The notes beneath the pieces were generated by a model. That model had not been told where the DNA came from. It made no database searches and saw only the letters and a program-made list of their open reading frames with translations. A stretch of 63,598 nt of DNA, filler included, from Reclinomonas americana ATCC 50394 (Eukaryota), in the NCBI GenBank assembly GCA_048213135.1. It is 7 parts of 3 records of this genome, joined end to end, with 100 filler letters (N's around TTAATTAATTAA, not from the genome) between each part and the next. Parts side by side here need not be neighbours in the genome. Positions count along the whole stretch, not along the records: positions 24,777 to 36,038 come from PS015701.1; positions 36,139 to 48,648 come from PS015701.1; 5 more parts are not named here. One strand, given 5' to 3'. Positions 15-50,700 of this stretch are shown piece by piece (position 1 is the stretch's first letter; each line of letters begins with the position of its first letter). The translations under genes and the position numbers were made by a program.

Positions 15-62
<48 letters not shown>

Positions 63-11829: not shown

Positions 11830-11841
11830 TTAATTAATTAA
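11830..11841. other. Artificial contig linker N-TTAATTAATTAA-N (also 24721, 36083, 48693, 60888, 62428)
   Basis: Identical palindromic 12-mer with stops in all six frames, centred in ~100-nt N blocks six times. Confidence 0.95.
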
Positions 11842-11936
11842 NNNNNNNNNNNNNNNNNNNNNNNNNNNNNNNNNNNNNNNNNNNNCATTCTTCGTCATTC
11901 ACCACTTTCTTGTTGGGTTGCCTTTTTCATGCGCAG

Positions 11937-16400: not shown

Positions 16401-17059
16401 GTTGCGCAGCGAGGCGGTCGAGCAACTCGACCACGTGTTCGTGGCCTGTAATGCGTGCCCATTGAGCCGCCGTCCTGCCCTTCTTGTCGACTATGGGAAT
16501 GAGGTCGGAAAAGCGTGTGGCAAGGAGTCGCACAATGGCTTTGTGGCCCCAGGCGGCAGCCCAATGCAGTGCAGTGGACTGTGGATTCGGATGACGATCA
16601 TTGGTACCCGCCCGCACCATCTCCGGCGGACATCGTCGCTCATCGGCCAGCAACCACTCGACCACTTGCAGATGCTCTTCATCGGCAGCAACCATCAGCG
16701 GTGTCTGGCCAGTATCGGTGACCACCAGTGCAAGTTCCGGACCGACGCCACTCTCCTCCCACAAATACTCCAACACAGAGAGATGGCCTCCGTGAGCGGC
16801 ACGGTAAAATGCCGAGCAGCCCTTGTGCATCTCCTCTCTCTTCAGCAGAGTGTGTGCACCCTCGCGTACCACCAACTCGCGCAGTGCCTTCACATTGCCA
16901 TTCCACGCCATCTCCCAAGCTTTCTTCCTGCAAAACACAACAAGCAGAGAGAGTGAGTTTGCACAGAGATCGATCGGACAATATCACACACATTCACACA
17001 CGCACACACCTCTCAACACCACCACTCCCCCCCACAGCTCCCCTGCGCGCCGCGCTCAT
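13447..17059 (-). CDS. Ankyrin-repeat / coiled-coil / IRAK-Pelle-like protein kinase, copy A (10 exons, ~600 aa)
   Basis: MSAARRG..|KKAWEM..ANK exon (~16927-16344)|[13 protein letters not shown]|coiled-coil exon|..[113 protein letters not shown]..|[15 protein letters not shown]. All junctions GT-AG and in phase. Confidence 0.9.
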
Positions 17060-17559: not shown

Positions 17560-20500
17560 TCACAGCTCCATGGTGAAGCAACCCAGTCGCTCTCGCAGAT
17601 CACGCATCACCGTCCTTGCCTCCGCCGCAGTTGGTCTGTCAAAGTACAGCGACATGCATCTGCACAGAGAGCAAGCGAAGTGAGTGGTGATTCAGCTTTC
17701 TCTCTCTCCTTCTACTCCTCCTCGAGCTCGCACGCAACTGCACTCCCAACCGCAACATCCCGCTCGCCACATCCGCCGGCCACTCGCCCGCAGCAAGATC
17801 CGCCTCCTCCGCACCGTCCGCCGACTCGAGTGACCGTTCCCACCGCGAAGCCTGTCCCACCACCGCACGTGCGTCGCGACCGGTCAACAACTGCAGCAAG
17901 ATGACGCCGAATGCGTGCAGATCCATGGCTGCACGGATCTCGCCTGCGCGTACGAACAGCGGGTCGATGTAGTACGAGGAGCCGGCGTGCTTGGCGGTGT
18001 GGTGGTGGGTCTGTGCGCGGGGGTATGAGAGGAGAACGACGAAGAAAGATGCATTCTCTATTCGTGAACTCATGCTCTCGCCGTGCTCTCAAGACACAAT
18101 CTTCACATATGAGAGTGCACAACGACAATCATTCCATTCTCTCTGCGACGAGAAATCGCTGTGCAACTCAACTTCATACCGCGGAGACAGTCGAGCGCAC
18201 GATCCTCTTTCTTTCACTCATGCACGAGTCGAGGGCGCGTGACCAATGAGACACGGAGAACGAGAGAGCATTCTCGTGCACCACAGTCGCGAAGGAAATG
18301 AGTGTGGACACAGAATGAGCAAGGCAATCACTCTCAGGAAAGGAGAAAGGGTGCATATGTACAACAAACATGAACGCTCCATCGATCGCGCTGCAAGCAC
18401 CTGCTAAGCTTCGATGACAGCCATGAAAGAATCCACTCGACACCGAGAATGAGAAGTGGAAAGAAGACGAGCTCTGGGTCTCCAACAAGCAACCCGATTC
18501 GAGATAGATAAAATGAGTGAAACGCACACCAACAACAAAGAAGTGGAGAAGTATCTTCCTGCTATTCTCCATCTGCTGACACGCACTCACCTCCCCCTCA
18601 TCGAATATGCGAGCAATACCAAAGTCACCGAGGCGTGGCTCACATCGGTTGTCAAGCAGAATGTTGGATGGTTTGAGATCGCGATGCACGACGCCGTTCT
18701 GATAGGAGAGAAAGTGAGGGTGATGGTGGAAGAGAAGAAGAACATTTGGAGAGAGAGGGCGATGGTCGCCGAGAATGCATGACGACGAGAAAGGAACGAC
18801 GGGCCGAGAAAGTATCGACAAATGGCAGATTGTGGGAGAGGTAGAGGAGAAGAAAAGAAAGATCACCAACACGTGCGTGCATGTACATAGCAAATGATGG
18901 CATCTACAAGTGAACTGTCGAGAGTGAGAAGAACGACTAGAGAAAAGACAGGAAACACAATCCAACGGCAGACAACTCAAGGAAGACGAGTGCCCGCCCA
19001 CTCTCCGCTGACAACAACCAAAGATACAGCCTAATGAACAAGAAAGAGCCTCACGATGCTCTCACGAAAAAAGGCACAAACAAGGATTACTCTCGCCAAC
19101 CAAGCCAGCCGAGGAGCTGTACATGGAGTCTGCCGCCTCACTCACCTGGTGCAAGAAACACATGCCCTCAACAATGCCGAGACCGATTTGCACACGCTCC
19201 ACCACCGTCAGTGGCTGCATCCCGTCCTTCCGCTTCATGAGTCGCACCTCCAGATCCTGTCCGCTGTGTGCGAAGCAAGGGAGGTGAGAGGAAGAAGGGA
19301 ATGCAGAGAGAATAGGAAAGAAGCAAAAGGAGGAGACAATGCGCTTGGTTGAATAAGAATGACGATCTCTGGAAGGTGCTCATTGTTGTGTGTGGAGCAG
19401 TGACGATTCAGATTATTATTTCTAGGAGAGAGAGGGAGAACGAGAAACAATGACGGGAGGTGGAGAGCAAACAGGGGGAGAGACGGATATGATGCAAGTA
19501 AACGGGAGTGCACAGAAGAGAATCAACAAACCAACCGCCTCGTCACACTTCCCCCACCGACTCACCGCATGGCTCGATACACCAAACATCGCCCTCGAAC
19601 ACCACCACCCTCCACCAGTGTGGAGTAACCCAGCAGTGGAACAAGTCGACGATGATGCAGCCGTCCAATCGTGTTCAACTGGCATGAGGAGAAGTGAGCA
19701 ACAGCTTAATCCCATCCCCTCCTGCTTCAACAGACCTCGGTATCGTACGACTCCATTGCCGATGGCGCAGCACCATCCAGTCGCTTGACAGCCACATCTT
19801 CCTCGCTCAGCCAACAAAGATACACCTCACCATGACCGCCCTCGCCAGCCTTAAGGTCGCTGGAGAAGGATTCGGTGGCGCGTAGAATGTCAGGCCAGGC
19901 GTACTCGCGCAGGCGATTGGGATCTGCGGCTGCGTGAGAGAAGGAGAGAGAGAGAGGTTCAGAGTGACGGTACGCAGAGAAGTGGTGCATCGCTCTCAGT
20001 CATACCTTGGAGGGTGGCTAGCTCGCGGCGCAAACGACTGTTTTCATGCGTGAGATCGACCCGCTCACTGGCAAACAGCTGCGACTGCTGTTCCAGTTCA
20101 CGCTGCAGCTGCGCGACACGCTGCTCCAATACGGCATTGGTTTGTCGAAGTTCCTCGTGCTGCCGCTCGAGTTGCTGCTGCTGCTGCTCTCGCTCATGGC
20201 GGTATGCGTCGTATTCATGCCGAAGATGAGACATGATGGCGTCCTTGTCGGCGAGCTGTCGGGCCACCGCGGAGGAGTCGTCCACAGCCTGCAGGTAACA
20301 AGGAGGTCGGAAAGAGTAGAGAGAAAGAGAGCGACAAGAAACCAACAGAGACGGTACGCGAATGGACTGATATTGTAAGGAATGCGCAGATTCTCACCTG
20401 CCGCTGTGGCGAAGCTGCTGCTGGCACACGAGCAAATTCGATGATGGGGACGGAGTAGGAACACAAAGTCACGAAGTGCAGGTCAGCATGTGCAACGGAG

Positions 20501-21228
20501 AGACAACAGCACAAGGCAGAGAAAGACCTGGAGGCGGGGGTCGCGGTTGCTGTTGTTGCTGTTGGGGTGGTGGCGCTGGTTGCGCAGCGAGGCGGTCGAG
20601 TAACTCGGCCACTTGCTGGTGGCCTTTGCCGCGTGCCCACTGAGCCGCCGTCTTGCCCGCCTTGTCGACCACGGGAACGAGGTCGGGAAAGCGCGTGGCG
20701 AGGAGTCGCACAATGGCTTCGTGTCCATTCAAGGCAGCCCAATGCAGAGCAGTGGACTGTGAAGTGATGCCATGATCATTGGTGACGGCCCGCACCATCC
20801 CCGACGGGCACCGTCGCTCATCGGCAAGCAACCACTCCACCACTTGCAGATGCCCATTGTAGGCAGCGATCATCAGCGGTGTCTCGCCATAATCGGTGAC
20901 CACCAGTGCGAGTTCCGGACCGACACCACTCTCCTCCCACAAATACTCCAACAAGGAGAGATGGCCTTTCACAGCGGCAGCATAAAATGCCGAGGAGCCA
21001 AGCTCATTCATCTCCTCTCTCTTCAGCAGAGTGCGTGCATCCTCACGCGCCACCAACTCGCGCAGTGCCTTCACATCGCCATTCCACGCCATCTCCCAAG
21101 CTTTCTTCCTAGCAAAGAGAGTGAGTTTGCTTCAGAGATCGATCGGACAACATCACACACATTCACACACGCACACACCTCCGAGCGCCACCACTCCCCC
21201 CCACAGCTCCCCTGCGCGCCGCGCTCAT
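17560..21228 (-). CDS. ANK-CC-IRAK/Pelle-like kinase, copy B
   Basis: Same exon structure and motifs as copy A; ANK exon ~21107-20528. Confidence 0.9.
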
Positions 21229-24676: not shown

Positions 24677-25435
24677 NNNNNNNNNNNNNNNNNNNNNNNN
24701 NNNNNNNNNNNNNNNNNNNNTTAATTAATTAANNNNNNNNNNNNNNNNNNNNNNNNNNNNNNNNNNNNNNNNNNNNAGTGCACGCGAAGGGACACATCAC
24801 TCTCACCGCTGCTGACGACTACCACTTCCGGCAGCTCGGTTCTGTACGGCAGCCATTCCTCTTCCTCTTTCCGCGCACGCGCGATGCAACAAAAAAAGGG
24901 AAACACCTCGTGTCCTGCTGATTCTCCGACGTCGACTTTAGTTCTTGTCACTGCTCCGCGTGAAGCTGGGTTGCGTGACAACTCGAGCCAACGGTGCATC
25001 CTTGTCACCAAGCCGCGCAGCTGACCATGGAGCTCAAGAATCCTGAACTAATAAGCTGTAAGCGCATTATGCACCTCTCACGTTGTGCTGCTGCGGTTGA
25101 AAGGCGCCACACATGCGCGACTGTCGGTCTTCACTGTCGAAACGCAGCCGTTTGCTTTTACCACCGATGAGCAAGGGCGCTGGTCTGCGCCATTCGAGCA
25201 ACTGAGGTCTGAACGACAGAAGCTGTCGTCAGCACCTCAACTGGTGCCTGGAAACCAGCAACTCACAATGCCGTGCAACAAGCAGTAGTATTCTCACTTC
25301 AGCATTCAGTTTCCCTCGAGTGACATTGAAGACGACCTGCATGACTGCATCATTGCAAACCATTAACACCATAAACAAGCGACAAAACCCTCTCCTCATT
25401 CCGCCTCTGTCTCTCCTCCTCAGTTCCTCTCCAAT

Positions 25436-28400
25436 TCACAGCTCCATGGTGAATCCACCCAGCCTCTCGCGTAGATCGCGCATCACTATCCTTGCCTCCG
25501 CCGCAGTTGGTCTGTCATAGAACAGCGACATGCATCTGCACAGAGAACGAGCGAAGTAAGCGGCGAGTCTTCTCTCCATCCCTCTTCTCCTCGCACGCAA
25601 CTGCACCCCCAACCGCAACATCCCGCTCGCTACATCCGCCGGCCACTCGCCCGCACTGAGGTCCGCTTCCTCGGCACCGTCCGCCGATTCCAGTGACCGT
25701 TCCCACCGCGCAGCCTGTCCCACCACCGCACGTGCGTCGCGACCGGTCAGCAGCTGGAGCAAGATGACACCGAATGCGTGCAGATCCATGGCTGCACGGA
25801 TCTCGCCTGCGCGGACGAACAGCGGGTCGATGTAGTACGAGGAGCCGGCGTGCTTGGCGGTGTGGTGGTGGGTCTGTGCGCGGGGGTATGAGAAGAGAAT
25901 GGCGAAGAGAGATGCATTCTCTGTTCGTGAACTCGCTCTCAAGTCACCGTCGCCACACATGCGAGAGTGAACAATGCCATTCTGTCTCTTTTATCTGCGA
26001 CGAGAAAAACGATGTGCAACTCAACCTCTAAACGCCGAGACAGGTGGGCACATGATTCTTTGTCTCTCACCCATCGCACAAATCACAGGTCTACGATCAA
26101 GGAGACGTGGAGAACGAGAGAAGTTCTCGGGCACCAGGGTTGTGAGACACAGAACAGGAACGGAGAAGTGAGCACTGGCAACAAACACGAATGCTGCCTC
26201 AATCTCGCTGCTGATCACTGCTGTGTCCATCTCTTCCATGACAGAAACGAAAGAATCCACTCGACAACGAGAGTGAGAGGTAGAAAGAAGACGTGCTCTG
26301 GGCCTTCCAACAGTAACTCAGCTCGGCGATACAACGTGCGCAGTGCGCCCCAAGAAAGAAGAGGAGAATCATTTTCCTGTGCTATCATCCATCTGCCGAG
26401 ACACTCACCTCCCCCTCATCGAAAATGCGCGCAATACCAAAGTCACCGAGGCGCGGTTCACACCGATTGTCGAGCAGAATGTTGGATGGTTTGAGATCGC
26501 GATGTACAACGCCGTTCTGAGAGGACAGAGTGAGTGTGATGGTCGAAGGGAAGAACATCTGGAGAGAGAGGGCGATGGCATCCGAGAATGCATGACACAC
26601 CAAAGAACTCGTCATCCGAGGGATGTTTGTGGGTGAAGTGGAAGAGAAGAAAGGAAAGATCGTCAGCTTGAACAATGAGCACCACATAACAAATGAGGGC
26701 ATCTACAAGTAAACTGTCGAGAGTGAGAAGCACGACGAGAGGAAAGACAAGAAACACACTACAACGACTGGCAACACAAAGACGCGAGTACTTACTCTCT
26801 GCTGACAACAACCAAAGACACAGCCTAATGAACAAAGAAGAGCCTGAAGAGCTCTCACAAACAAAAAACACAGACAATGATTGCGCTCGCCAACAGGGAA
26901 ACTGTTACCTCACTCACCTGATGCAAGAAACACATGCCCTCGACAATGCCGAGTCCGATTTGCACACGCTCCACCACCGTCAGTGGCTGCATGCCGGCCG
27001 CTCGCTTCATGAGTCGCACCTCCAGATCCTGTCCACTGTGTGCGAAGCAAGGGAGGTGAGGAAGAAGGGGATGCAGAGAGAAATGGAAAGAAGCAAAGAA
27101 GGAGACAATGCGCTTCGTTGAAGAAGAGTGACGATCTCTGGAAGGTGCTCATTGTGTATGGACCAGTGAAGATTCTATTAATTCTAGGAGAGAGAGAGAG
27201 AGAGAAAGAGACACAATGAGGGGAGGTGGAGAGCGAACAGCGGAGAGACAGATATGATGCAAGTAAACGGGAGTGAACAGAAGAGAATCAACAAACCAAC
27301 CACCTCGTCACACTTCCCCCACAAACTCACCGCATTGCTCGATACACTAGACATCGCCCTCGCACACCACCGCCCTCCACCAGCGTGGAGTATCCCAGCA
27401 GTGGAACAAGTCGACGATGATGCAGTCGTCCAATCGTGTTCAACTGGCATGAGGAGAAGTGAGCAACTGGCATGAGGGGAAGTGAGCAACAGCTTGATCC
27501 CATCTCCTTCTGCCTCAACGGACCTCGACATCGTACGACTCCATGGCCGATGGCGCAGCACCATCCAGTCGCTTGACAGCCACCTCTTCCTCGTTCAGCC
27601 AGCACATATACACCTCACCATGACCTCCTTCGCCAGCCTTCAGGTCGCTGGAGAAGGATTCGGTGGCGCGTAGAATGTCAGGCCAGGGGTATTCGCGCAG
27701 GCGATTGGGATCAGCGGCTGCAGATGGGGAAAGGAGAAAGAGAGGTTCAGAGTGACGGTACGCAGAGAAGAGGTGCATCTCACTCAGTCATACCTTGGAG
27801 TGTGGCCAGCTCGCGGCGCAGGCGACCGACCTCATGGGTGAGATCGACCCGCTCACTGGCGAAGACATGCGTCTGTTGTTCTAGCTGTGCGACACGCTGC
27901 TCCAATACGGCATTGGTTTGTCGAAGTTCCTCGTGCTGCCGCTCGAGTTGCTGCTGCTGCTGCTCTCGCTCACGGCGGTACGCGTCGTGTTCGCGCTGCA
28001 TTTGGGCGATGAATGCATCCTTCTCGGCGAGCTGACGGGCCACCGCGGCGGCGTCCAGTGCCTGCCCAGAAGCAGGGAGGTCGGCAAGAGTAGAGAGAAA
28101 AAGAGCGAGAGGAAACCACCAGAGATGGTACGCGAATGGACTGATACAGGAAGGAATGCGCAGATTCTTACCTGCCGCTGTGGCGAAGCTGCTGCTGGCA
28201 CATGAGCAACTTTGATGATGGGGACGGAGTAGGAACACAAAGTCGCGAAGTGCAGGTCAGCATTCGCAAAGGAGAGACAACAGCACACGTCAGAGAAAGA
28301 CCGGGAGGTGGAGGACATCGCGGCTGCTGTTGTTGTTGTTGACGTGGTGGCGCTGTTTGTGCAGCAAGGTGGTCGAGCAACTCGGCCACTTCCTGCTTGC

Positions 28401-29008
28401 CACACTCGCGTGCCCATTCAGCCGCCGTCTTGCCCTCATAGTCGACCATGGGAATGAGGTCGGGATAGCGAGTGGCAAGGAGTCGCACAATGGCTTTGTG
28501 GCCCCAGGCGGCAGCAAAATGCAGTGCGGTGGACTGTGGATTGTTGGAACGATCATTGGTGACCGCCCGCACCATCTCCGGTGGACATCGTCGGTCATCG
28601 GCAAGCAACCACTCCACCACTTGCAGATGTCCATTGCAGGCAGCCACCATCAGCGGTGTCTCACCACAGTCGTTGACCACTAGTGCGAGTTCCGGACCGA
28701 CACCACTCTCCTCCCACAAGAACTCCAACACAGAGATATGGCCTTGTTGAGCGGCACAGTAAAATGCCGTGCAGCCATCGTCTATCTCCTCTCTCTTCAG
28801 CAGAGTGCGCGCACCCTCACGTGCCACCAACTTGCGCAGTGCCTTCACATTGCCGTCAAATGCCATATCACATGCTTTCGGCCTGCAAAACACAACAAGC
28901 AGAGAGAGTGAGTGCGCACAGAGGTCGATCAGACACACACATTCACACACACACACACCTCCGAGCGCCACCACTGCCCCCCACAGCTCCACTCCGCGCC
29001 GCATTCAT
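25436..29008 (-). CDS. ANK-CC-IRAK/Pelle-like kinase, copy D
   Basis: MNAARSG..|[10 protein letters not shown]..; same exon structure; [12 protein letters not shown] and DFG intact; ends GGFTMEL*. Confidence 0.9.
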
Positions 29009-29542: not shown

Positions 29543-32500
29543 TCACAGCTCCATGGTGAAGCCACCCAGCCTTTCTCGCAGATCACGCATCACCATCCTC
29601 GCCTCCGCTGCAGTTGGTCTATCAAAGTACAGCGACATGCATCTGCACAGAGAGCAAGCGAAGTGAGTGGTGAGTCAACTCTTCTCTCTCTCTTCTCCGT
29701 CGGACGCAACTGCACCCCCAACCGCAGCATCCCACTCGCCACATCCGCCGGCCACTCGCCCGCAGCAAGATCCGCCTCCTCGGCACCGTCCGCCGACTCG
29801 AGTGACCGCTCCCACCGCGCAGCCTGTCCCACCAGAGAGCGCGCCTCGCGACCGGTCAACAACTGCAGCAAGATGACGCCAAAAGCGTGCAGATCCATGG
29901 CTGCACGAATCTCGCCCGAGCGGAAGAAGAGTGGATCGGTGTAGTACGTGGAACCGGCGTGTTTGGCGGTGTGGTGGTGGGTCTGTGCGCGGGGAGAGAG
30001 GGGGATGAGAAGAGAATGATGAAGAGAGATATTCTCTGCTCGTGAGCTCATGGTCTCGCCGTGCTCTCAAGACAAAAATCTCCACCCATGCGAGAGTGCA
30101 GAACGACAATCTTTCCATTCTCTCTGCGACGAGAATAGTTGTACAACCCATCCTCTCAACGTGGAGATGCACGAGTACACGTTTACCTTTCTCTCACCCA
30201 CTGCACAAATCACAGGTCTACGATCAAGGAGACACGGAGTATGAGAGTAGTTCTCATGCACCAGAGTTGCGAAGGAAATGAATGTGGACACAGATGAGCA
30301 AGGCAATCACTCTCAGGAAAGGAAAAAGGGTGCACATGTACAACAAACATGAACGCTCCATTGATCACGCTGCAAGCACCTGCTAGGTTTCGATGACAGT
30401 CATGAAAGAATCCACTCGATAACGAGAGTGAAAAGTGGAAAGAAGACGAGCTCATCTCAGGGATCGGAATAATGAGTGAAACGCACACCAACAACAGCAG
30501 AAGAGAATCATCTTCCTGTGCAGTCATCCATCTGCCGAGGCGCACACTCACCTCCCCCTCATCGAAGATGCGCGCGATGCCAAAGTCTCCAAGACGTGGC
30601 TCGCATCGATTGTCAAGCAGAATGTTGGATGGTTTGAGATCGCGATGCACGACGCCGTTCTGAGAGGAGAGAGGAGAGAGGGTGACGAAGGAAGGAAACA
30701 TTTGGAAGGAGAGGGCGATGGTCTCCGAGAATTCATGATGACGGGAAGGAACATGCCATCCGAGGGAAGGTTGTGGGAGAGGTGGAAAAGAAGACAAGGA
30801 AGATCACCAACGCACGTGCGGTGCAAACACATAGCAAATGATGACATCTACAAGTGAACTGTCGAGAGTGAGAAGCACGACGAGAGAGGAGGCAAGAGAC
30901 ACAATCCAACGACTGGCAACTCAAGGAAGACGAGTACCTGCCCACTCTCCGCTGACAACAACCAAAGACACAGCCTGATCAACAAAGAAGAGTCGCTCGA
31001 TGTTTCCAAAGACACATACAATGATTGCTCTCGCCTATACGAGAGGTCGCGCAGGGAGTCTGCCGCCTCACTCACCTGGTGCAAGAAACACATGCCCTCG
31101 ACAATGCCGAGACCGATTTGCACACGCTCCACCACCGTCAGTGGTTGCATCCCGTCCTTCCGCTTCATGAGTCGCACCTCCAAATCTTGTCCACTGCGTG
31201 CGAAGCACGGGAGGTGAGAGGAAGAAGGGAACGCAGAGAGAAATGGAAAGAAGCAAAGGAGGAGACAATGCGCTTGGTTGAAGAATGACGATCTCTGGAA
31301 GGTGCTCATTGTTGTGCATGGATCAGTGAAGATTCAGGTTATTATTTCAAGGAGTGAGAGAGAGAAAGAGACACAATGAGGGGAGGTGGAGAGCGAACAG
31401 CGGAGAGACAGATATGATGCTAGAAAGCGGGAGCGAACCAACCGCCTCGTCACACTTCCCCCACCAACTCACCGCATGGCTCGATACACCAGACATCGCC
31501 CTCTCACACCACCACCCTCCACCAGCGTGGAGTATCCCAGCAGCGGAACAAGTCGGCGATGATGTAGTCGTCCAATCGTGTTCAACTGGCATGAGGAGAA
31601 GTGAGCAACAGCTTAATCCCATTCCCTCCTGCTTCAACAGACCTCGGCATCGTACGACTCCATCGCCGATGGCGCAGCACCATCCAGTCGCTTGACAGCC
31701 ACCTCTTCCTCGTTCAGCCAGCACATATACACCTCACCATGACCGCCCTCACCGGCTTTCAGGTCGTCGGAGAAGGATTCAGTGGCGCGTAGAATGTCGG
31801 GCCAGGGGTATTCGCGCAGGCGATTGGGATCTGCGGCTGCGTGACAGAAGGAGAAAGAAAGGTTTAGAGTGACGGTTCGAAGAGCAGAAATGCGTCTCTC
31901 TCACGCGCACCTTGGAGGGTGGCAAGCTCGCGGCGCAAACGACTGTTTTCATGCGTGAAATCGACTCGCTCACTGGCAAAGAGTTGCGCCTGCTGTTTCA
32001 ATTCACGCTGCAGCTGCGCAACACGCTGCTCTGCGATGGCGAGAGCCTGTCGAAGTACCTCATGCTGCCGCTCATGTTCCCGCAGCTGCTGCTCTCGCTC
32101 GTGTCGATATGCGTCGTATTCACGCTGCAGATGTGCGACACGCTGCTCGTGCTCTCGTCGCTGCTGCTCAGCTTGTCGCTCATACTCCCGCTGCTGCTGT
32201 TGTTCTCGCTCCTGTCGACATGCATCGTATTCGCGCTGCAGACTGGCAATGGTGGAGTCCTTGTCGGCGAGCTGACGCGCCATCGCAGCAATGTCGTCCA
32301 TGGCCTGCAAGAAACGCACGCAAGAGGGTGAGAGAAGAGTGAATCGAAGGCTGTCAGGTGGAGGGCGACTCACCCGCTGCTGCTGTGCGACTGAGGAACA
32401 ATCAAAAGGAAACGTCATCAAGCGATGGAACAAAAAACGCAGTCGCCAAAGAAAGGGCACACCTTGCTGATGAGATGGCGGCGCTGATTGTGCAGTGAGG

Positions 32501-33141
32501 CGGTCGAGCAACTGGGCCACTTGTTGGTGACCGTTGCGGCGTGCTCTCTGAGCCGCCGTCTTGCCCTCATAGTCGACCATGGGAATGAGGTCGGGAAAGC
32601 GAGCGGCGAGGAGTCGAACAATGGCTTCGTGGCCCCAGGGGGCTGCGAAATGCAGAGCAGTGGACTGTGAACTCAAGTGACGGTCATTGGTGACCGCCCG
32701 CACCATCTCTGGCGGACATCGTCGCTCATCGGCCAGCAGCCACTCGACCACTTGCAGATGTCCCTTGCAGGCAGCCGCCATCAGTGGCGTCATGCCATTG
32801 TCGGTGACCAACAGTGCGAGTTCCGGACCGACGCCACTCTCCTCCCACAAATACTCCAACACAGAGAGATGGCCTTCGTACGCGTGAGCGGCATAGAAAA
32901 ATGCCGAGCCGTTTTTACGCATCTCATCTCTCTTCAGGAGAGTGCGTGCGCCCTCACGTGCCACCAACTCGCGCAGTGCCTTCACATCGCCAAGCAAAGC
33001 CATCTCCCAAGCTTTCAGCCTGCAAAACGCAACAACAAGCAAAGAGAGTGACTTTGCACAGATCAATCAGACTGCAAACAACAGATCAAGGCACGCGCAC
33101 CTCTTTCCTCCACCGTTGCCTCTGTTCTGTGCAGCACTCAT
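29543..33141 (-). CDS. ANK-CC-IRAK/Pelle-like kinase, copy E (long coiled coil)
   Basis: MSAAQNRG..|[10 protein letters not shown]..; kinase exons intact; ends GGFTMEL*. Confidence 0.9.
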
Positions 33142-33529
33142 TCTTCACACACTCACAGGGCTCCACACACAAGGTTGATCACACGGCCCCGATCACAAGG
33201 GCAGAGTTGGCGGAGTGGCAACGAACGAGAAAGATGTCCTGCATGCGTTGTGGATCGTCGGAACATTCAGGGAATGAACGTCCTTTGCCAGCGTTGGGTG
33301 GTGCGGCAAGTACGACATGCAGAATGGGAGCACACGGGAGAGGGGGTATGACGTCGACGTCGACGATGCTGAAGTTTGTGCCGGTTCGGCGTCAGCTGAA
33401 AGTCGGCTCACCAGTGGCCACCAGAACTTGTGCTGACAAAGTTCTCATGCCTGAGCCCCATCAACAGTTTTGACTCAGACAGGAGGGATGTATCCATTGT
33501 CTGTTGTTGTTGTTGTTGACTTTACTTCA

Positions 33530-35331
33530 AAGCTTCTTGACGAGTCCACTCAGCTTCTCTCGGAGATCCCGCATTGCTGACAATGGAATAGCGGCGCGCA
33601 TCTACACAAAAGAATGAGAGGCATCCCTTTCCCATCTCTTCTCCTCACAGAGACGCAACTGCACACCCCCCTTCCAAAGTATCGGTTGTACTGATCGTTC
33701 CCGTCTGGCCTGCGCAGCACTTGCACCAGATTCACCTCGAGTGTAGTGCAGCGTGTTGGAGTTCGGCCAGTTCGCGGCGCAAGCGCTCGATTTCACAGTT
33801 TTGATCGGCAGACTTCTGGACAAGTGCCTGAGCTTGCTGCTCTACATCGCGTTGCAGCTGGGCGACTCGCTGCTTTGCGATGGCGTGCAACCGTTGAAGT
33901 TCTTCGTGCTCTCGTCGCTCATGTTTCCGCTGTTGCTGTTCTCGCCGTCGTCGGTATGGATCAATCAAGGCGTCATGCTCAGAGCTGACGCACCACGCGA
34001 CACCGTCCAATGGCTGCAGGGAAACAGGGAGGTGGGCAAGAGGGCGAGAGAGGGAGGGAGGGAGGATAGGAGGGAGGGAGGGAGAGAGAAAAGAGAGAGG
34101 AAGTGAGCGAAAGAGAGTGAAAGAGAAAGAAGATGAGAGTAAAAAGAGAGAAACGAGAGAAAAAGAAAGAGAAAGAGGAGAGAGAGAGAGAGAGAGAGAG
34201 TAAAGAAGAATCTGGAGATGCATGAGAGGAAGAGAGACAGAGGCAGATCTGAAAAGAGAATGCGCGCGCGAGAGAGAGAGAGTGAAGAACACGAGCGAAT
34301 GAGTGTGCAGTGAGTGTACGCAAGGGCATGCATGGGACAGAGACAGGCAGCCAAAGAGAGATAGTGAGTGAGATAAACGTTGAGAGAGAGAGACTGACTG
34401 ACAGACAGAGAGAGGAGGGGGGGGGGAGAAAGACAAAACAGAGAGAAAAAGAAAAGTAGTGCGAGAGAGAGAGAGAGAGTGACAAGTAGCGTGCTCACAG
34501 ATGATACACGAAGGAACTTGGTCGCAAAGCACACGCAGTGTCTCACCTGACGTTGTGGGGACGCTGCTGTGGGTTGGTTCGGGAAATCGCGACACGAAAT
34601 GCAAAGTCAGGAAACGAGAGACAACAGCTAATGAAGACAACGAGAGACAAATATACCTGGAGGTGGAGATCGCGGCTGCTGTTCTTGTCGATGTGCTGGT
34701 GCTGGCTGCGGAGCGAGGCGATCGAGCACCTCGGCCACTTGGTGGTGGTCGTTGTCGCGTGCCACCTCAGCCGCCGGCTTGCCTTCCTTGTCAACCATGG
34801 GTACGAGATCGGGGAAACGAGTGGCAAGGAGTTGCACAATGGCTTCGTGGCAACTCCAGGCAGCGAAATGCAGTGCAGTCCACTGTTCATAGTCGACTAC
34901 CTCTGACGCACATCGTTGCTCATCGGCCAGCAACCATTCCGTCACATGCAAATGTCCTTGCTCGGCAGCTACCATGAGTGATGTCATGCCATAGTCAGTG
35001 ACCAACTGTGCGAGTTGTGGCCCGACGCCACTCTCCTCCCACAGAAACTCCAACACAGAGAGGTGGCCTTTCCACGCGGCACAGTAGAATGCCGAGGCGC
35101 CCTCATCCATCTCCTCCTTGTTCAGCAGAATGTGCGTGCCCTCATGCGCCACCAACTCGCGCAGTGCCCTCACGTCGCCGTAATAAGCCATCGCACATGC
35201 TCTCAGCCTTTTACCATGAAGCAGCCAGTGTGCGTTCCATAAGACTGACATCGAAACAACGAATTGCACATACACACGCACCCCTCATCGCCACCACGTG
35301 CATCCTTGCCTCTCCTCCGTGCGGCACTCAT
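33530..35331 (-). pseudogene. Kinase-less copy F (ANK + degenerate coiled coil + kinase C-terminal remnants); pseudogene or decoy
   Basis: Open ANK exon ~35206-34657. The coiled-coil frame stops at 33732. Only AQARRERSV..GVQLR and MRDLREKLSGLVKKL* remnants follow; N-lobe, HRD and DFG exons are absent. Confidence 0.75.
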
Positions 35332-35822: not shown

Positions 35823-35944
35823 ATGTCGATTGCTGAGGATCTCGCCGGTCACTTTGTGGAGGTTCCTGCCACGCAGATTGGGCGGGTTATTGGTGCAGTT
35901 GCGGTTTTTTGTGAGAAAGGAGAGAGGGAGGAGATTGGGGAGAA

Positions 35945-35992
<48 letters not shown>

Positions 35993-36238
35993 GGAGGATA
36001 CTCCGACATTGCTAGTTGACGTGAGTGACATGATCCTANNNNNNNNNNNNNNNNNNNNNNNNNNNNNNNNNNNNNNNNNNNNTTAATTAATTAANNNNNN
36101 NNNNNNNNNNNNNNNNNNNNNNNNNNNNNNNNNNNNNNGTTAGGTACCTCTGTAGTCGTCTCTCTACTCTCTGTCTCTACTTTACCGTTCCTTTCGTTCT
36201 ACTCTTTCTACGTCTCAGCCTCGTGTCCTCCTCTCCTC

Positions 36239-36270
<32 letters not shown>

Positions 36271-39200
36271 TCTCTCGTTCTGCATCACTCACTTCATCAC
36301 CATTGCACAGAAAGGCTCTCATGTGCAGGAACTGGAGTCGACTTACGGAGTGGTGCTGCGTGTGCCCGGGCGAGGAGCCGTGGGACCGGTGTCTGTCAGT
36401 GGACCGTGAGTGGTGGAAAGGGAGAAGGGGCGAAGAAGGTGGACATAAGGAGAGAGAGGAAGAGAAGGGAGATCAAGAGAGAGACAGAGAGAGAGACAGA
36501 GAGAGAGAAAACGTGAGGGAGAGAGAAGGAGGAAAGAGAGTGAGAGAGAGGAGGAAAGAGAGCGAGAGAGTGAGAAGGAGGCCAGATGGTGAGCGCGAGA
36601 GAGGTAAAGCAGGAAGAGTGAGTGAGAGAGAGAAGGAGGAAAGAGAGATAAAGAGAAAGAGAGAGAAAGAGAGAGAGAAAGAGAGAGAACGGAGAGAGAT
36701 CGAGAGAGAGAGAGAGAGAAGGAGGACAGAGAGCGAGAGCGAGAGAGGTAAAAGGAAGAAGGAGTAAGAGAGCGACTGGGAGCGCCTCCTCTGCCCTATT
36801 CCCCGCCCCGCCCTCTCTGAGAACGCCTTGAAGAACATCACAAACCCCACCCATCTCTCACTCTCTTCTCCCTCCACAGTGAACGCGGCTGCTGCGATGC
36901 CCTGCTGGCCATCCTCCGTGCCGCGGGAGACAACGTACGAGTCGCGGTGCAGATGCCGTTTGTGAACATTGCCGGCGACGTGACGGCCTTTTTCGGTGCG
37001 TTGTGCTCTGCTCGTCTTACTGGCAGTCACTGACTCACTGTGCTCTCTCCTTGCCTTGCGCAGCCGACTTGAAGGTTTGTATCTTTGTGAGGGACCTCCT
37101 CTCTCTCTCTCTCTCTGTCTTTGTATAACTGTGGTGCACGGTGACTGCGGGATACCTTCCTATCAGTAGACTCTTTCGTTTCGTTCTCGCCTGCTGTGAC
37201 TTGGACGATTGACAACTGGTGCTAGTTTCTCACGTGACATCCACAATCATTTCTCGCTTCGCGTCACACATGCGCTAGTGGAGGCAGTACATTCGCTCTT
37301 GTGGACTGCTTACCGTTTGTTGTGTTTATTTGTTGCTCTGTCGTTGTCTACCGGTGCACTACTCGGCATGATTCATCCCTTGACCCTCGCCCTACGCGGG
37401 TTACTTGGAGTTCTTTCTCCCATTCTCTTTCTGTTTGTCGATCTTGTTCTTGTGGGTGTTTGTTTGTTTGCGATTCAGCAGTTCAACCACGCTCACTCAT
37501 CTCTATGCTCTGCCTGCTATATTGCGCATGTTCTTCACGCGTCTCTCTGCCTTGACTCTCGTATGGTGGCATTTGTTGCAACAATTGTTTCTCGCTCTCA
37601 CCTGTTCGTTTCTCTTTCTTGTCAACACGGTTGACGCTCCTCCTTCTTGTGTTAACATTGTTTTTCGCTCTCATCTACTCGCTACTCTGTCATGTCAACA
37701 CGCTTGACGCTCCTCCTCGCTCTCACACACTCTCCTTTGCATTTTCTTCTCCCTCCCCCCTTTCCCCCCCTTTCCCCCCTCCCTCCCCCCCTTTCCCCCT
37801 CCCTCCCCCCCATCCCACAGCCCGACCTCGAAGGCATTCACGTCGTCGACAGCGAGATGAAAGTCGCCGTCGTCTCCGGCGAATCGGCCATCGTGCGCAA
37901 GCTCCTCTTCACCTACATTATCCAGGCAGCCCCGTGGGGACGAGGTGGGCGCTCGTTTCTCTTTCTGATACCCTCTTATCTTTGCTAACTTCTTCGACAG
38001 GCGAGTACGCCTTTGTCGAGTACTTTGTGCCGTCGGCCCGCGTGGGCCGCATCATTGGACCGCAGGGCTCGGTGATCCGCGACATGCAACAGGCCACCGG
38101 TGCCAACATTCAAGTGCTGCAGCCGAATCGCGGTCGACAAGGCGCCGACGAGCACGTGGTACACGTGACGGGTCCGCCGGCGGCCGTGCGCGCGGCGTGC
38201 CAGCGCGTGGAGGCGGCGTCGGGGGTGGTGAGTGAAGGAGAGAGAGAGCGGGCGAGAGGTAAGAGACCGGAGAGTTGAATGTGCGTCTGCTCGCAGGCTG
38301 ACCTTCACGGCACCGCGATCTTGGCGCCGCCGGGTGCGCCACCGGCAAACACCGTGTCGTCGTCGCCGTCGTCGTCTGACGCGTCTGCCCCAACGGCTGC
38401 CGCCGGAGGTGCTTCAGGATCTGGTTCCTTCCTCCCCACGCCGGGAGTTGCTTCCGCCGCTGCGACTCCGGCGGATCCGGGCGACACCTTCACCGCCATT
38501 GGCGCGCTGCTGGTGGCCAGTTGCAATCACTTTTTGGAGAATGCCGGCACGCGAGTGGCCATCCGTGCCGACATGGCGAAACTGCAGCAGGCGTTGAAGC
38601 AGGCGCCAGGTGCGTTCAAGGGGGAAGGGTGGAGTGGGAGATCATCCGAGGACGTGCATCTTTGCGTAGTTTTCCTTGTCGTGCCCTTCCCGTTCCCTTT
38701 CGTGTTGAAGAGGGAAGGGTGGTGTGAGGGGATCCTCCAAGGACGTGCATCTTTGCGTAGTTTTCCTTGTCGTCTCTTGTGCTCTTTGCCGTGCCCTTTT
38801 TCGTTCCCTTTTGTGTTGAAGGGGGAAGGGCATTGTGGGGCATCCTCCAAGGACGTGCATCTTTGCGTAGTTTTCCTTGTCGTCTCTTGCGCTCTTTTAC
38901 CGTGCCCTTCCCGTTCCCATTTGTGTTGATTACCTTGAGAATAATCACGCATTCTCTTTGTACCGTCTATAGCACGGGTAGTCTCTCTCGCCATGCTCTG
39001 TTTCCTCCTCCTTTCAAGGACAATGATCATGTCGTACGTCTCTTGCTTTCTTCTCCTTCTTCCTGCCCTTCTCTTCAATCAAGGGGAAAGGTGTGACATC
39101 CGTGGCGAGGACACAGATCATGTCGTGTCTCTCCGCTCTCATAATTTTCTTCTCTTGTCCTTCGTTGGTTGCTACAGGACATGCTTTTGCGTCTTCCTTT

Positions 39201-40615
39201 TTGCATGTGCAATCTCTCACTGCTTCCCCTGTTTTCCTTTTTCCGTTCTGTGTGCATCTTTGTGCACTATTCATTGCAGGTGTCATATCTTTCACGGCCC
39301 TGTCTTTCTTTTCCCATCTGCACTGAGAAAAAATCGTGACGTGCCTTTCCTCAGCAAACATTCCCTTGTCTCCCCTCCGTGGTTGCTACGAAATCATCTT
39401 TGTTGCATCAGTCTATTACGCATGCAGTTCCCTTCTTTCCCCGAAGGTGGTGGTTGCGATGAGAATGGTCGATTCGTGACTGCCATCTCTGCTTTCTTGC
39501 CATTCTCGATCCCTTCTGTATATGGCGCGAAGGGAAAGAACATTCGCCACCGCCTCTGCAACTTCTTCCTTCTCCTCCTCTTCCTCTTCCTCCTCCTCCT
39601 TCTCCTCCAACGCCGCCGCTGGAGCCACGACCTCCACCACCTCCTCCTCCTCCTCCTCCACGTCTTGTTCTTCCACCACCTCCATGTCCACAACCTTCTC
39701 GTGTCATGCTTCTCGTCTCTGCCTGTCCCTCTCCCTTGTGTGTGTGTGACCGCGATGCAACTGATGATTCTTTCTCTTGTCATGTTTCTCACTCTCCCCC
39801 CTTTCCCTTTCCCTTGTTTCCCTTTCCCTTTTGCAGACGTCACCTTTGCCTGCACCAGCGCCCGCCGCCTCATGCACGCCACCGCCAAAAGCGCCCTCTC
39901 GCGAGGCGGCCTCGACCCGGAGTTGTTTGTCGACTGGATGAGCGACGTCGCCGAGTGCATTGCCGTTGCCGAGCACAATGCGGTTCGTTACATAGTCATT
40001 TCTCTTTGTGTATTCTTGCTGAGTTTGCGGACACAGACCGCCCAACACGAATGCCTGTTCTTCCCCTCCGAGGCCTCGTACCTGCGTGTGCTCGAGGTGC
40101 TGAGCTCGGCGCACGTCTCCATGGACATTTGCGTGTTCACCATCACCGACGATCGCATCTCCAACGCGGTGCTGCGTGCGCACGATCGCGGAGTGCGTGT
40201 GCGCGTCATCAGCGACGACGAGTGCCTGAAGCAGCGCGGCTCGGATGTGGAGCGCATGGTGAGGAGAAAGCGGTGAAGTGGTTATTCTCGTTGTCATCTC
40301 ACCGCTTTCGCACAGGCGCGAGCTGGCATTCCGTGCCGTCCCGACGCCAATCCGGCCTCGCACATGCACCACAAGTTTGTGATTATCGATGGTGGTCGTG
40401 GTGAGTGGCAAAAAAAGAACGGAGGTGTGTCGTGGAGGCCTTCTCACTGCGCATCGCCAGTGATGAACGGGTCGTACAACTGGACGCAGAACGCCTCGCA
40501 CATCAACCGCGAGAATGTGGTGATTACGAGCGAGCCGTCGGTGGTCAGCGCTTTCCAGGATCACTTCAACACGCTGTGGGTGGAGTACCGAGCCAATGAG
40601 CTGCCGCGCAAGTGA
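35823..40615 (+). CDS. Multi-KH-domain + single-HKD PLD6/Zucchini/Nuc-family nuclease/phospholipase fusion (~11 exons; one small exon presumed in the 36039-36138 gap)
   Basis: KH1 VEVPATQIGRVIG..ELESTYGVVLRVP..VSVSGP; KH FVPSARVGRIIGPQGSVIRDMQQATGANIQV..VHVTGPPAAVRAACQRV; PLD LFFPS..SMDICVFTITDDRIS..VRVRVISD..HMHHKFVIIDG..NGSYNWT..NRENVVI..F..LW. Junctions from 37821 to the stop are phase-consistent; the 5' linkage across the gap is less certain. Confidence 0.82.
38615..38930. repeat. 3 x ~90-110 bp tandem repeat at start of intron
   Basis: ggacgtgcatctttgcgtagttttccttgtcgt at ~38650, 38741 and 38851. Confidence 0.9.
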
Positions 40616-45869: not shown

Positions 45870-46829
45870 CTGCGAAAGAGGGAAGAGTGATAGAGAGAGA
45901 GAGAGAGAGAGAGAGAGGTCAGTCTCGTGCAGGAGGTGAGTGAGGGAAGGAGAGAGAGAGTGAGTGAGTGAGTGAGCGAAGGAGGAAGGAGTGAGTGCAG
46001 CGAGTGAGTGAGTGAGTGAGTGAGTGAGGGAGTGAGGGAGTGAGGGAGGGAGAGTGAGAGTGAGTGAGTGTGAGTGTGTGAGTGTGTGTGTGCGTGTGTG
46101 TGTGTGAGTGAGTGTGTGAGTNNNNNNNNNNNNNNNNNNNNNNNNNNNNNNNNNNNNNNNNNNNNNNNNNNNNNNNNNNNNNNNNNNNNNNNNNNNNNNN
46201 NNNNNNNNNNNNNNNNNNNNNNNNNNNNNNNNNNNNNNNNNNNNNNNNNNNNNNNNNNNNNNNNNNNNNNNNNNNNNNNNNNNNNNNNNNNNNNNNNNNN
46301 NNNNNNNNNNNNNNNNNNNNNNNNNNNNNNNNNNNNNNNNNNNNNNNNNNNNNNNNNNNNNNNNNNNNNNNNNNNNNNNNNNNNNNNNNNNNNNNNNNNN
46401 NNNNNNNNNNNNNNNNNNNNNNNNNNNNNNNNNNNNNNNNNNNNNNNNNNNNNNNNNNNNNNNNNNNNNNNNNNNNNNNNNNNNNNNNNNNNNNNNNNNN
46501 NNNNNNNNNNNNNNNNNNNNNNNNNNNNNNNNNNNNNNNNNNNNNNNNNNNNNNNNNNNNNNNNNNNNNNNNNNNNNNNNNNNNNNNNNNNNNNNNNNNN
46601 NNNNNNNNNNNNNNNNNNNNNNNNNNNNNNNNNNNNNNNNNNNNNNNNNNNNNNNNNNNNNNNNNNNNNNNNNNNNNNNNNNNNNNNNNNNNNNNNNNNN
46701 NNNNNNNNNNNNNNNNNNNNNNNNNNAAGCAAACAAACAAACAAAGGGAGAAAGACAGACTTCTCACTCACTCTCACACTCTGTCTTCCTTGCGTTCTTC
46801 TTGCCAATGAGTGATGAAATACTGGAGGG

Positions 46830-47737: not shown

Positions 47738-50700
47738 ATGTTTCTCATCGAGGAGAGCTTCGCGAGTGAGACTGCATGTGCTGTTCGTTGTGTTTCCAGT
47801 GGTGGTGCTGGTGAGGATGAGCTGTCGTTTGCGGAGTTGTTGGTGCGAGTGAGGTGTGTGAGTGCGGCGTTGGCAGAGGTGAGATGCGTGAGAGGGAGGG
47901 AGGGAGGGCAGAGCTCCTTTCGTTCTTTTCCCTTCTCAGTTTCTCCTCCTGGTTCTTTTTTGTTGTTCTTCTACTCCTTCCTTTCTTGCTTCCACCTCTC
48001 CCTTCTCCTGCTCATCCTGCTTCTTCTTCCTCCATACTCTTCTTCTTCCTCCACGCTCTTCTTCTTCCATCACCTCATCTGCTTCTTCCCTCCACCTCCT
48101 CCTCTTATTCCCTCCACCTCCACCTCCTTCTGCTCCCCCGCTTTTTCTTCTCCTTCTTCTTCTTCTTCTCCTCCTCCCCCTCTCATCCTCCTCCTCCTCC
48201 TCCTCTTCCCCCCCTCTCATCCTCCTCCTCCTCCCCGCCCCCCCCCCCCCTCTCTTCCTTCTCACCCGCCTCTTGCAGCACGATGTCAGTGGTCTCGTCG
48301 GCCTCTGGGCGAGCCACTCATGCGCACTCGTCGCCATGTCACTGGGGTGCGTCCCCTTCCCCCCTTTTTATCTCTCCCTCACCCTCACATCTCGCACGCG
48401 CAGTGTCGCGCAGCTTCCCGACTGTGCATTCTTCTGCTTATCGCCACACGCACCGGCGACGCAGCATCCACACGCCGCAGTGTTCCCGTTGCTGGGCGCC
48501 ATCATCGTGCCGCAGGAGCAGGCTGGCGAGAGGCAGATGGAGGTGCGTTCTCTCGAGTAAGTGGAGAGATATGCATTCCTTCACTCATTTACCTTTTTGT
48601 AGTACCTCCATTCGGTGGCCTCCCATTGCCTCGCCCTCGAATACCCCANNNNNNNNNNNNNNNNNNNNNNNNNNNNNNNNNNNNNNNNNNNNTTAATTAA
48701 TTAANNNNNNNNNNNNNNNNNNNNNNNNNNNNNNNNNNNNNNNNNNNNCCATGCGCGTTCTGTGGACCGCCACCCCACACTCATCGCCAGTGCATCTCCC
48801 ATTGCACATCGCCGATGAGGACATTGTGTACGCCATGCTCACCTCGGGCACCACCGGCACTGCCAAGCTTGTGTGGTTGGTGATTCCACGTCGTTCCTTC
48901 TAGGGATTCAATGGGCTCACCAGTGCCGCCAGTGTACCTCGCGCCTGTGTTCTGCCCAACATTGACGATTTCAGGGAACGAGTGTGGCGAGTTGTGCGCG
49001 AGGTGCGTGCGAATCAAATGGAGACAGTTGCTGTTCAATCTCTCTGTCATCATTCATCTCCCTCTCTTTCTATCCTCGCCCGTTTCTCTCTGTCCTCATC
49101 ATTCTTCAGTTCTTTCTGTCCTCGTTTCTTCTCCGTTCTTCGTTCTCTTCCTTCTCCTGTTTCTCTGCCCTCATCCTCCCCGTTTCTCTCTTTTCCTCGT
49201 CCTCTCCTCTGTTTTTCTGTCTTCATCCTTCTCCTCTGTTTTTCCTTCTTCATCCTTCTCCTACATCTCTCTAGTCCCCTTCTCTTTCAGTCTCCTTCCC
49301 CTCTGTCTATCTGCTCTTCTTTCTCCTGTTTCTCTACCCTCATCCTCCCCATTTCTCTCTTTTCCTCGTCCTCTCCTCTGTTTTTCTGTCTTCATCCTTC
49401 TCCTCTGTCTTTCTGTTTTCATTCTTCTCCTACATCTCTCTAGTCCCCTTCTCTTTCAGTGTCCTTCTTCCCTCGTCTTTTCCAGTGTCTCTCTGTCCTT
49501 AATCCTTCTCCATCTCTCAGTGTCCTCATTCCTCTTCGTTCTTTTCCTGCTACTGTTTTCTCTGTTCATCCCTTCGTCTCTATCTCCTAATCATCATCTG
49601 TCTCCAATTCTCTCTGTTCTCATCCTTCCCCTCCTTCTTCTTCGGTTTCTCTGCCCTGATCTTTTTCCTGTTTCTGTCCTCATCCTGTCTCTTTTTCGTT
49701 GTCCTCACCCTTCCCCCTGCTTCTCTGTCCACATCCCCTCTCCTCTTCCCCTTACTCACCCTTCTCCTTTCCACCCTTCCCCCTTTTTCACCCTTCTCCC
49801 TTCTTGATCACCAGGACACCATCCTCTGCCTCTCACCACCCCACTTCGACCCCTCCATCATCGACATGTGGACGGCGTTCACCGCCCGCGCCACCCTCGT
49901 CGTCACCTCACCAGAAAACGTCGCCGACACCCAATCCCTCCTGCAAGTCATGCAGAAGTCGCGCCCCACGTAAGTGCTCACCTCACATGTGCATCCTTCC
50001 TTTTCTTCATTCCTGCGTCGCAGAATCGTGCACATGACACCCACCGTCCTCCACCGCCTCGCTCTCGTCACCTCTCCCGCCGACCTCTGCGCCACCGTGC
50101 CCTCCTTGCGCTTGCTCTCCCTCGGCGGCGAGCCGTGCCCTGCACCGTCCCTGCTGAAGCGCGTGCTGGGCCGTGCACTTCCGCCGGGATTCCGCGTGGT
50201 GAATGTGTACGGCATCACGGAGGTGTCGGTGGTGAGTGTGAGCACCGATTGCCGGCCTCCACCTCTCTTCTCACACGCATGGTGACAGTGGGCGTCGGTG
50301 GAGGAGGTGGATCTTGCGGAAGGTGACGACGACGAGATGAGTGTCCCCGTCGGGTCGCCTTTGCAGGGCACGCACTTTGCGCTCGAGTCGGAGGAGTTTC
50401 GTTGGTGATAGACTCGTCTTTGATGGCTGTCTGTCGCTGATGAATGGCACGCAGAAATGGTGGTGGCGTGTTGACACCCCTGGCCTCACTGACGCACATG
50501 CTGGAGGCGAGTGGAATTTTGTGGATTGGTGGAACGCAGCGCCAGTGTCACTGTTTCTCTCTTCCTTCGGTCACCGCGGTCGAGCCGCGTGTGGCAACAG
50601 TGGCTCACGAAAACGTCATGTTTGCGTCGTCGGGTGATGTGGTCGCGTGCACGCGAGAGGTTTGCCTTTTGCGCTCCAGTATTTTTGTTGCAATCTACTC

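Follow-up and report, generated by a model that had tools for sequence, protein, structure and literature searches.

In a stretch of 63,598 nucleotides from Reclinomonas americana ATCC 50394 (GenBank assembly GCA_048213135.1), hereafter referred to as the window, we analyzed a gene on the plus strand at 35823-40615 that is predicted to encode a fusion of KH domains and a PLD domain of the PLD6/Zucchini/Nuc type. Hand-built splicing of 11 exons gives one continuous predicted frame of 522 amino acids, and all ten introns of the model are of the GT..cAG type with phases in agreement (Table 1). The ATG at 35823-35825 and the TGA at 40613-40615 lie exactly at the limits given in a preliminary description of the locus, which had been made from the DNA without database searches. 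The region has a eukaryotic character, with short coding blocks amid GA/CT-rich, stop-filled DNA. The domain order of the predicted protein is a KH domain (KH1), an unclassified segment of ~70 amino acids, a second KH domain (KH2), then a low-complexity linker and a helical segment, and finally a PLD domain with a single HKD motif.

Table 1. Elements of the predicted KH-PLD gene in the window. The 11-nt micro-exon is unnumbered, and the last exon is designated exon 10/11; slashes mark splice boundaries.
Element	Residues	Position	Strand	Content
Exon 1	1-25	35823-35897	+	Start codon, first KH1 strand, start of the GxxG loop (…IGRVIGA)
Linker inside intron 1		36039-36138		44 N + TTAATTAATTAA + 44 N
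Exon 2	26-57	36311-36405	+	KH1: rest of the GxxG loop, helix 2, strands
Exon 3	57-95	36880-36995	+	KH1 C-terminal helix, then start of the middle segment
Micro-exon, 11 nt	96-99 (ADLK)	37064-37074	+	gcgcag/CCGACTTGAAG/gtttgt
Exon 4	100-140	37821-37944	+	Middle segment, KH undetectable
Exon 5	141-216	38001-38227	+	Whole KH domain with IIGPQG
Exon 6	217-320	38297-38609	+	A/S/G/P-rich linker, then first helices of the helical segment
Exon 7	321-369	39837-39982	+	Remainder of the helical segment
Exon 8	370-443	40037-40258	+	First half of PLD (ECLFFP…DICVFTITDD…VRVISDD)
Exon 9	444-471	40316-40400	+	HKD motif: H461 (40367-40369), K463, D468
Intron, 60 nt		40401-40460	+	gtgagt…cgccag
Exon 10/11	472-522 + TGA	40461-40615	+	GSYNWT, NRENVVI, PLD C-terminal helix

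The two families named for a domain search in the preliminary description, KH_1 and PLDc_2, were both found by Pfam above the curated cut-offs. KH_1 matched exon 5 with an E-value of 6.4e-18 (64.7 bits), and the same exon scored 26-27 bits against the family KH profiles. PLDc_2 matched exon 8 (2.3e-9, 37.6 bits) and the last exon (2.7e-13, 50.3 bits; cut-off 27). Exon 2 alone gave a sub-threshold KH_1 match (E 0.11), and KH1 became apparent once exons 1-3 were spliced, when residues 12-60 scored 31.7 bits against a KH profile made from the relatives described below. Two KH domains, as originally proposed, are thus present, both of type I and both with an intact GxxG loop (VIGAKG at residue 22 and IIGPQG at residue 158). 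A further, degenerate KH domain had been suspected between them. In the middle segment (residues ~73-143), hhalign detected no KH domain, with probabilities of 0.1-0.5% for two KH profiles and for either the single sequence or a three-sequence alignment as query, compared with 97.8% for KH1 as positive control, and this part of the description is unsupported. An AlphaFold2 model of the closest relative, P0282, computed from 28 alignment rows, has pLDDT values below 50 over most of residues 14-188 and is too uncertain to judge the fold of the middle segment, which may still be KH-like.

KH2 is followed by 88 residues with a high content of A, S, G, and P, and then by the helical segment and the PLD domain. 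A single PLD match per chain was obtained (residues 373-513, 181 bits against the family PLD profile), and HHKFVIIDGGRVMNGSYN at residues 461-478 of the spliced model is an exact HxK(x)4D(x)6GSxN. The motifs on which the locus had first been recognized were all located, IIGPQG in exon 5, and HHKFVIID, GSYNWT, and NxEN (as NRENVV) in the last exons. No transmembrane anchor was found in the 522-residue model, in agreement with the anchor-free protein described earlier; the highest mean hydropathy of any 19-residue span (Kyte-Doolittle) was 1.53 and belonged to the PLD core. The N-terminus, MSIAEDLAG, is acidic and leads directly into KH1.

In one respect the original reading of the last exons was revised. 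The 60 nt at 40401-40460, previously taken as coding, are predicted to be an intron, and without them the exact spacing of the catalytic motif and a gap-free fit to 11 relatives are obtained. At the other end of the gene, exon 1 and exons 2-11 are on different contigs, and the linker within intron 1 is read as a scaffolding join. This join looks correct because exons 1-3 together make up a KH domain (IGRVIGA/KGSHVQELE) with the profile score given above. The exon 1 donor GCA/gttgcg was chosen because it restores VIGAKG and aligns gap-free with the relatives P0282 and P0273; the alternative donor G/gtgcag, used with the acceptor aaag/, was rejected, as it leaves the GxxG loop two residues shorter than in these two proteins. 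The junction of exons 2 and 3 is phase-2/phase-1 and produces the codon CC/T. The start codon at 35823 is a prediction, and the relatives likewise start just ahead of KH1. In-frame ATGs further upstream (35.6 kb) were considered and rejected; position 35823 was kept because the 35.6-kb stretch recurs upstream of a neighboring ankyrin gene copy (open reading frame (ORF) 32808-33473) and because the relatives begin right at KH1. The micro-exon is the least certain element of the model. It is needed to close the frame between exons 3 and 4, and its sole support is the alignment to P0282, which runs through it ungapped. Skipping it by way of the donor GAC/gtgacg would lose 13 residues that align ungapped to P0282, and this variant was rejected. 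Within the intron of 1227 nt that separates exon 6 from exon 7, a 110-nt unit is repeated 2.3 times (38676-38929, 87% matches); without use of the exon 6 donor, the frame would remain open through this repeat to 38929.

Retention of the intron between exons 5 and 6 would bring the frame to a stop at 38276-38278, directly followed by an in-frame ATG. The gene model could on this basis be an artefact that joins two adjacent genes, one for a KH protein ending with this TGA and one for a PLD protein starting at 38279. We consider this very improbable. KH and PLD are joined in one ORF or transcript in 75 of the fetched proteins, among them P0282 and P0273, in each of which Pfam finds one PLDc_2 besides two stretches of KH_1; furthermore, splicing in the model is canonical and in phase, and the helical-domain homology unit runs through the junction of exons 6 and 7. 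The KH and PLD exons are assigned to one transcript because relatives from other eukaryotes hold both in a single ORF or transcript, and because the homology unit formed by the helical segment and the PLD domain crosses the 1227-nt intron, with exon 6 beginning only 69 nt past the KH exon.

Comparison with solved structures placed the PLD domain closest to PLD6. For exon 8 the best matches were mouse PLD6/MitoPLD (9lkx and 4ggj, 1e-9), followed by Drosophila Zucchini (4-5e-6). The relative P0040 gave 1e-24 with PLD6, 8e-14 with Zucchini, and 7e-9 with Nuc, and a fold search with P0282 gave TM values of 0.82 for 4ggj, 0.70 for 4gel (Drosophila Zucchini), 0.86 for 1byr (Salmonella Nuc), and 0.78 for 6ehi (Helicobacter pylori NucT). 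The catalytic motif, the profiles, and these structures uphold the initial view of a KH fusion to a single-HKD PLD domain of the PLD6/Zucchini/Nuc type. PLD6/MitoPLD and Zucchini share the single-HKD fold and HxK(x)4D(x)6GSxN with the window protein. Unlike them, it lacks a transmembrane or mitochondrial anchor at the N-terminus, and the catalytic domain is preceded instead by the two KH domains with the linker and helical segment. Zucchini and PLD6 also have a Zn-binding insertion between the first strand and the first helix. In the window protein the LFFP strand is followed after only three residues by the next helix (ECLFFPSE-ASYLRVLEVL), with neither an insertion nor a Cys/His cluster. As both the membrane anchor and the Zn-binding insertion of animal PLD6/Zucchini are absent, we do not file the window protein as a Zucchini orthologue; it is a predicted PLD6-type nuclease of a distinct KH-fused family.

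Nuc and NucT are minimal single-HKD dimeric nucleases with the same PLD fold, known as secreted or periplasmic DNA/RNA nucleases without KH domains. Since they are clear relatives in both sequence and fold, and some KH proteins bind single-stranded DNA, the window protein might be a Nuc- or NucT-like nuclease acting on single-stranded DNA held by its KH domains. We regard this as unlikely, given that the sequence is closer to PLD6/Zucchini than to Nuc, that eukaryotic tandems of type-I KH domains are mostly RNA binders, and that neither a nuclear-localization nor a DNA-repair context was seen. The highest single-domain scores (150-164 bits) were obtained by bacterial stand-alone PLD6-like proteins of ~228 amino acids, which align end to end with residues ~306-515 of the window protein, that is, with the helical segment and the PLD domain. 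Examples are P0003, P0013, P0049 (from a Planctomycetaceae metagenome-assembled genome, MAG), P0057 (Myxococcales MAG), and P0073 (Pelagibaculum spongiae). These proteins are free of KH domains, uncharacterized, and automatically named 'endonuclease / cardiolipin hydrolase'. Other fusions of KH with an endoribonuclease are KHNYN and N4BP1 (KH-like + NYN) and the bacterial RNase Y (KH + HD). They are parallel in design, with a KH module that holds single-stranded RNA beside an endonuclease module, and differ in having unrelated, metal-dependent catalytic folds (NYN/PIN-like and HD); the likeness is a functional analogy only.

A profile made from 11 relatives and four exon fragments of the window (A1) was searched against 1.84 billion protein cluster representatives, which gave 28,632 matches at E <= 0.001. 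The best 150 of these 28,632 representatives were classified with local KH and PLD profiles. KH and PLD were found together in 63 of the 150, with one PLD domain in 62 and two in the remaining one; 46 were long, vigilin-like proteins with KH only, 25 had at least two PLD domains and no KH, and 16, several of them fragments, had one PLD domain and no detected KH. Among 287 fetched proteins, 75 combined KH and PLD. In 74 of these HxK(x)4D(x)6GSxN is intact, the exception being a fragment of 242 amino acids, and 55 of the 57 members of at least 300 amino acids have one or more hydrophobic-GxxG motifs N-terminal to the PLD domain. Word-based searches also returned proteins of 300-400 amino acids that bear KH_1 together with PLDc_2. 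Thirty clusters were looked up by exact sequence, and six of them carried an organism name: Rigifila ramosa (CRuMs; EP00004 P013969, identical to P0143); the Diplonemea (Discoba) Diplonema papillatum (KAJ9465457.1, identical to P0172), Rhynchopus humris, in which the entry is labeled K16862/PLD6, and Lacrimia lanifica; Flabellula baltica (Amoebozoa); and the foraminifer Nonionella stella (Rhizaria). Three of the other clusters were EukProt transcripts and the remainder JGI, Logan, or ENA records, mostly contigs of 1-2 kb.

Most members are KH-KH-PLD proteins of 300-400 amino acids with a short linker (median 331 amino acids among those of at least 300); examples of the uncharacterized protist KH-KH-PLD proteins are P0172 of D. 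papillatum, P0143 of R. ramosa, P0040, and P0045. As in the window protein, their KH domains precede one PLD6-like domain within the same chain; most of them, unlike it, are without a middle segment, a long linker, or a helical segment. The long layout, in which a middle segment lies between the KH domains and a linker and helical segment precede PLD, is common only to the window protein, the intron-free P0282 (518 amino acids, from an ENA contig of 2.3 Mb), and P0273 (559 amino acids, from a EukProt transcript). Identity of P0282 to the window protein is 34% over the whole length and 45% in the helical and PLD portion; the highest identity in the PLD domain, 53%, was to the KH+PLD protein P0189. 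No close orthologue was found when longer proteins were searched with the last exon, which returned only matches of 33-45% identity, and the N-terminal 330 residues of P0282 used as query retrieved nothing but P0282 itself. A second architecture of eukaryotic appearance, with two tandem PLD6-like domains and no KH, was observed in P0001, P0002, P0152, P0163, and 21 other representatives. In P0152 a C-x9-C-x5-C-x3-H stretch lies ahead of each PLD domain, with weak, sub-threshold matches to CCCH zinc fingers (18-20 bits), and such stretches may be another tie of the PLD clade to RNA.

We conclude that the window gene is probably a member of a widespread, apparently unstudied protist KH-PLD6 family that is automatically named in databases. 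The preliminary description had regarded the fusion as probably undescribed. This holds for the literature, where a full-text search, with subscription journals and supplements outside its coverage, found no paper describing a KH-PLD6/Zucchini fusion. It does not hold in the sense of a one-off protein, the databases containing a widespread family. In the part of PMC9935688 available to us, a Zucchini homologue is not reported for Toxoplasma or trypanosomes, and the available part of PMC10542128 has Zucchini solely in its reference list.

The automatic names of several relatives, such as 'Mitochondrial cardiolipin hydrolase' for the Diplonema protein at NCBI, raise the alternative of a lipid phosphodiesterase that, like MitoPLD, converts cardiolipin to phosphatidic acid, in which case the KH domains would only localize or regulate the enzyme, for example on RNA granules. 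A membrane association would also fit the MGxC-type N-termini of five of the 75 KH+PLD relatives, namely P0172 (MGCDQSK), P0214 (MGCFESK), P0155 (MGICGS), P0273 (MGACQGK), and P0279 (MGSCCSC), which we take to be myristoylation/palmitoylation (dual-acylation) signals. Some members of the family may thus be membrane-tethered, with a lipid anchor in place of the transmembrane helix of the animal proteins. The window protein itself starts with MSIAED, without MGxC, and has neither an MG start nor a transmembrane segment to set beside its acidic N-terminus. The conserved fusion to two GxxG-intact KH domains points toward a nucleic-acid substrate, and, according to the part of PMC10783504 available to us, single-HKD homodimers are typical of the nucleases of the PLD family, whereas lipid-hydrolyzing PLDs have both HKD motifs in one chain. 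Taken together, we attach little probability to a lipase function.

PLD domains were also compared in phylogenetic trees of 150 alignment columns, built with FastTree from 270 rows and with a quick IQ-TREE run (LG+G4) from a subset made up of all 55 full-length KH+PLD rows and of 35 of the 122 single-domain and 14 of the 54 tandem-domain rows, the latter two drawn randomly. PLD domains shorter than 135 amino acids and KH+PLD proteins shorter than 300 amino acids were left out of the subset, and the trees are without animal PLD6/Zucchini sequences. KH+PLD proteins were strongly clustered, with 5 changes observed compared with 34.9 expected by shuffling. Without a constraint, the window protein was placed beside the KH+PLD protein P0199, with weak support. 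When all 55 KH+PLD rows were forced into one clade, the log-likelihood was 17 units above that of the free quick tree (approximately unbiased (AU) test p 0.7), and a single origin of the KH-PLD fusion is compatible with these data.

As to function, the preliminary description had proposed an RNA-directed nuclease, and this remains the most economical reading of a single-HKD PLD domain joined to two GxxG-intact KH domains. With moderate confidence, we suggest that the window protein acts as a soluble, homodimeric endonuclease on single-stranded RNA, which its KH domains would hold. Two chains would pair through their PLD domains, each contributing one His-Lys-Asn set (H461, K463, and N478), and the paired sets would make up a single phosphodiesterase site that is independent of metal, like those of Nuc, Zucchini, and PLD6. 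Single-stranded RNA would be gripped by the GxxG loops of the dimer's four KH domains and delivered to the catalytic groove, where endonucleolytic cleavage would leave 5'-monophosphate ends. The cellular role is probably cytosolic RNA processing or decay rather than a role at the mitochondrial membrane. Dimerization, RNA as substrate, the end chemistry, and the cellular location are here inferred. PLD6 and Zucchini are described in the available part of PMC10783504 as single-stranded RNA endonucleases that leave 5'-monophosphates and whose active site is made by the pairing of two single-HKD chains.

Several points weigh against this RNA endonuclease. Biochemical data on any KH-PLD protein were not found in the literature searched, and the database names of the relatives read cardiolipin hydrolase, an activity that has also been reported for PLD6 itself. 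KH domains are moreover able to bind single-stranded DNA. In the gene model, the micro-exon and the start codon are only inferred, and exon 1 is reached across an assembly join. The PLD tree is poorly resolved, with 12 of 101 inner branches well supported, and in the free trees the window protein falls beyond the main KH+PLD cluster in an unsupported placement. Finally, the long and the short fusions could be independent, because the helical segment brings the window protein nearer to the bacterial stand-alone proteins than the short KH-KH-PLD form is.

The preliminary description had further considered a role in small-RNA production, in which Zucchini-like cleavage would yield 5'-phosphate, possibly phased products that feed an Argonaute/Piwi protein, or in defense against viruses or transposons. 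Among solved proteins the PLD domain is indeed nearest to PLD6/Zucchini, and the KH proteins Papi/TDRKH act in the animal pathway. The PLD domain is, on the other hand, at least equally similar to the bacterial stand-alone enzymes, the family occurs in many protists with uncharacterized small-RNA pathways, and nothing in the analyzed sequence ties the gene to Argonaute/Piwi or small RNAs, and we hold such a role to be improbable. A broader evolutionary proposal, which we judge distinctly unlikely, is that KH-PLD6 represents the ancestral eukaryotic form of Zucchini/PLD6, a soluble enzyme that found RNA with its own KH domains. Animals would then have exchanged the KH domains for a mitochondrial anchor and passed RNA handling to KH/Tudor partners, while the R. 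americana protein would still supply an Argonaute-type protein with small-RNA precursors that bear a 5'-phosphate and are possibly phased.

Further features were noted elsewhere in the window. Upstream of the KH-PLD gene, at ~11.8-35.3 kb, is a tandem array of paralogous genes ~4 kb apart and mostly on the minus strand, with copies for instance at 34628-35284, 31864-33066, 28168-29004, 20469-21131, and 16285-16983, and one plus-strand copy at 11842-12819. Each array gene has ankyrin repeats (Pfam Ank_2, ~4e-19), a Q/R-rich, coiled-coil-like stretch, and a protein-kinase exon (…DFGIARIF; Pkinase, 3e-10), and the last copy, which is transcribed divergently from the KH-PLD gene, lies ~540 nt upstream of its ATG. 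Tubulin-family exons at 2-3198 on the minus strand (Pfam Tubulin, 2e-13; start MTVFLQVGQCGNQV…) are clipped by the edge of the window. A weak PH-domain exon at 55689-56336 (plus strand, E 1e-4) and a RING-finger exon at 60957-61721 (plus strand, E 1.6e-4) were below the cut-off, and a chromodomain-like stretch at ~45.6-45.9 kb on the minus strand (…YKVRWKG…DTWEPEKNL…) was recognized by eye only. Neither Rfam at its gathering thresholds nor a tRNA scan gave a match in the window. Besides the linker in intron 1, joins of 44 N, 12 bases, and 44 N are present at 11786-11885, 24677-24776, 48649-48748, 60844-60943, and 62384-62483, six in all. The 12 bases were read only at 36083-36094, where TTAATTAATTAA has stops in all six frames. 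Longer runs of N are located at 9727-10639, 12493-12796, and 46122-46726. The window is thus a pseudo-scaffold of small contigs, in which the parts need not stand in their true order or orientation.

The interest of the finding rests on the family more than on the single locus. PLD6/Zucchini starts the production of piRNAs in animals and has long been argued to be a lipid hydrolase instead. The KH-PLD fusion is conserved in at least four deep lineages of eukaryotes, with its catalytic and GxxG motifs intact, and this is 'Rosetta-stone' evidence for RNA as the old substrate of the family. Being soluble and anchor-free, KH-PLD enzymes should also lend themselves more readily to expression and assays than the animal proteins, which are membrane-bound. 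KH-PLD6 moreover makes up a family of protist enzymes, so far untouched, that are likely to process RNA.

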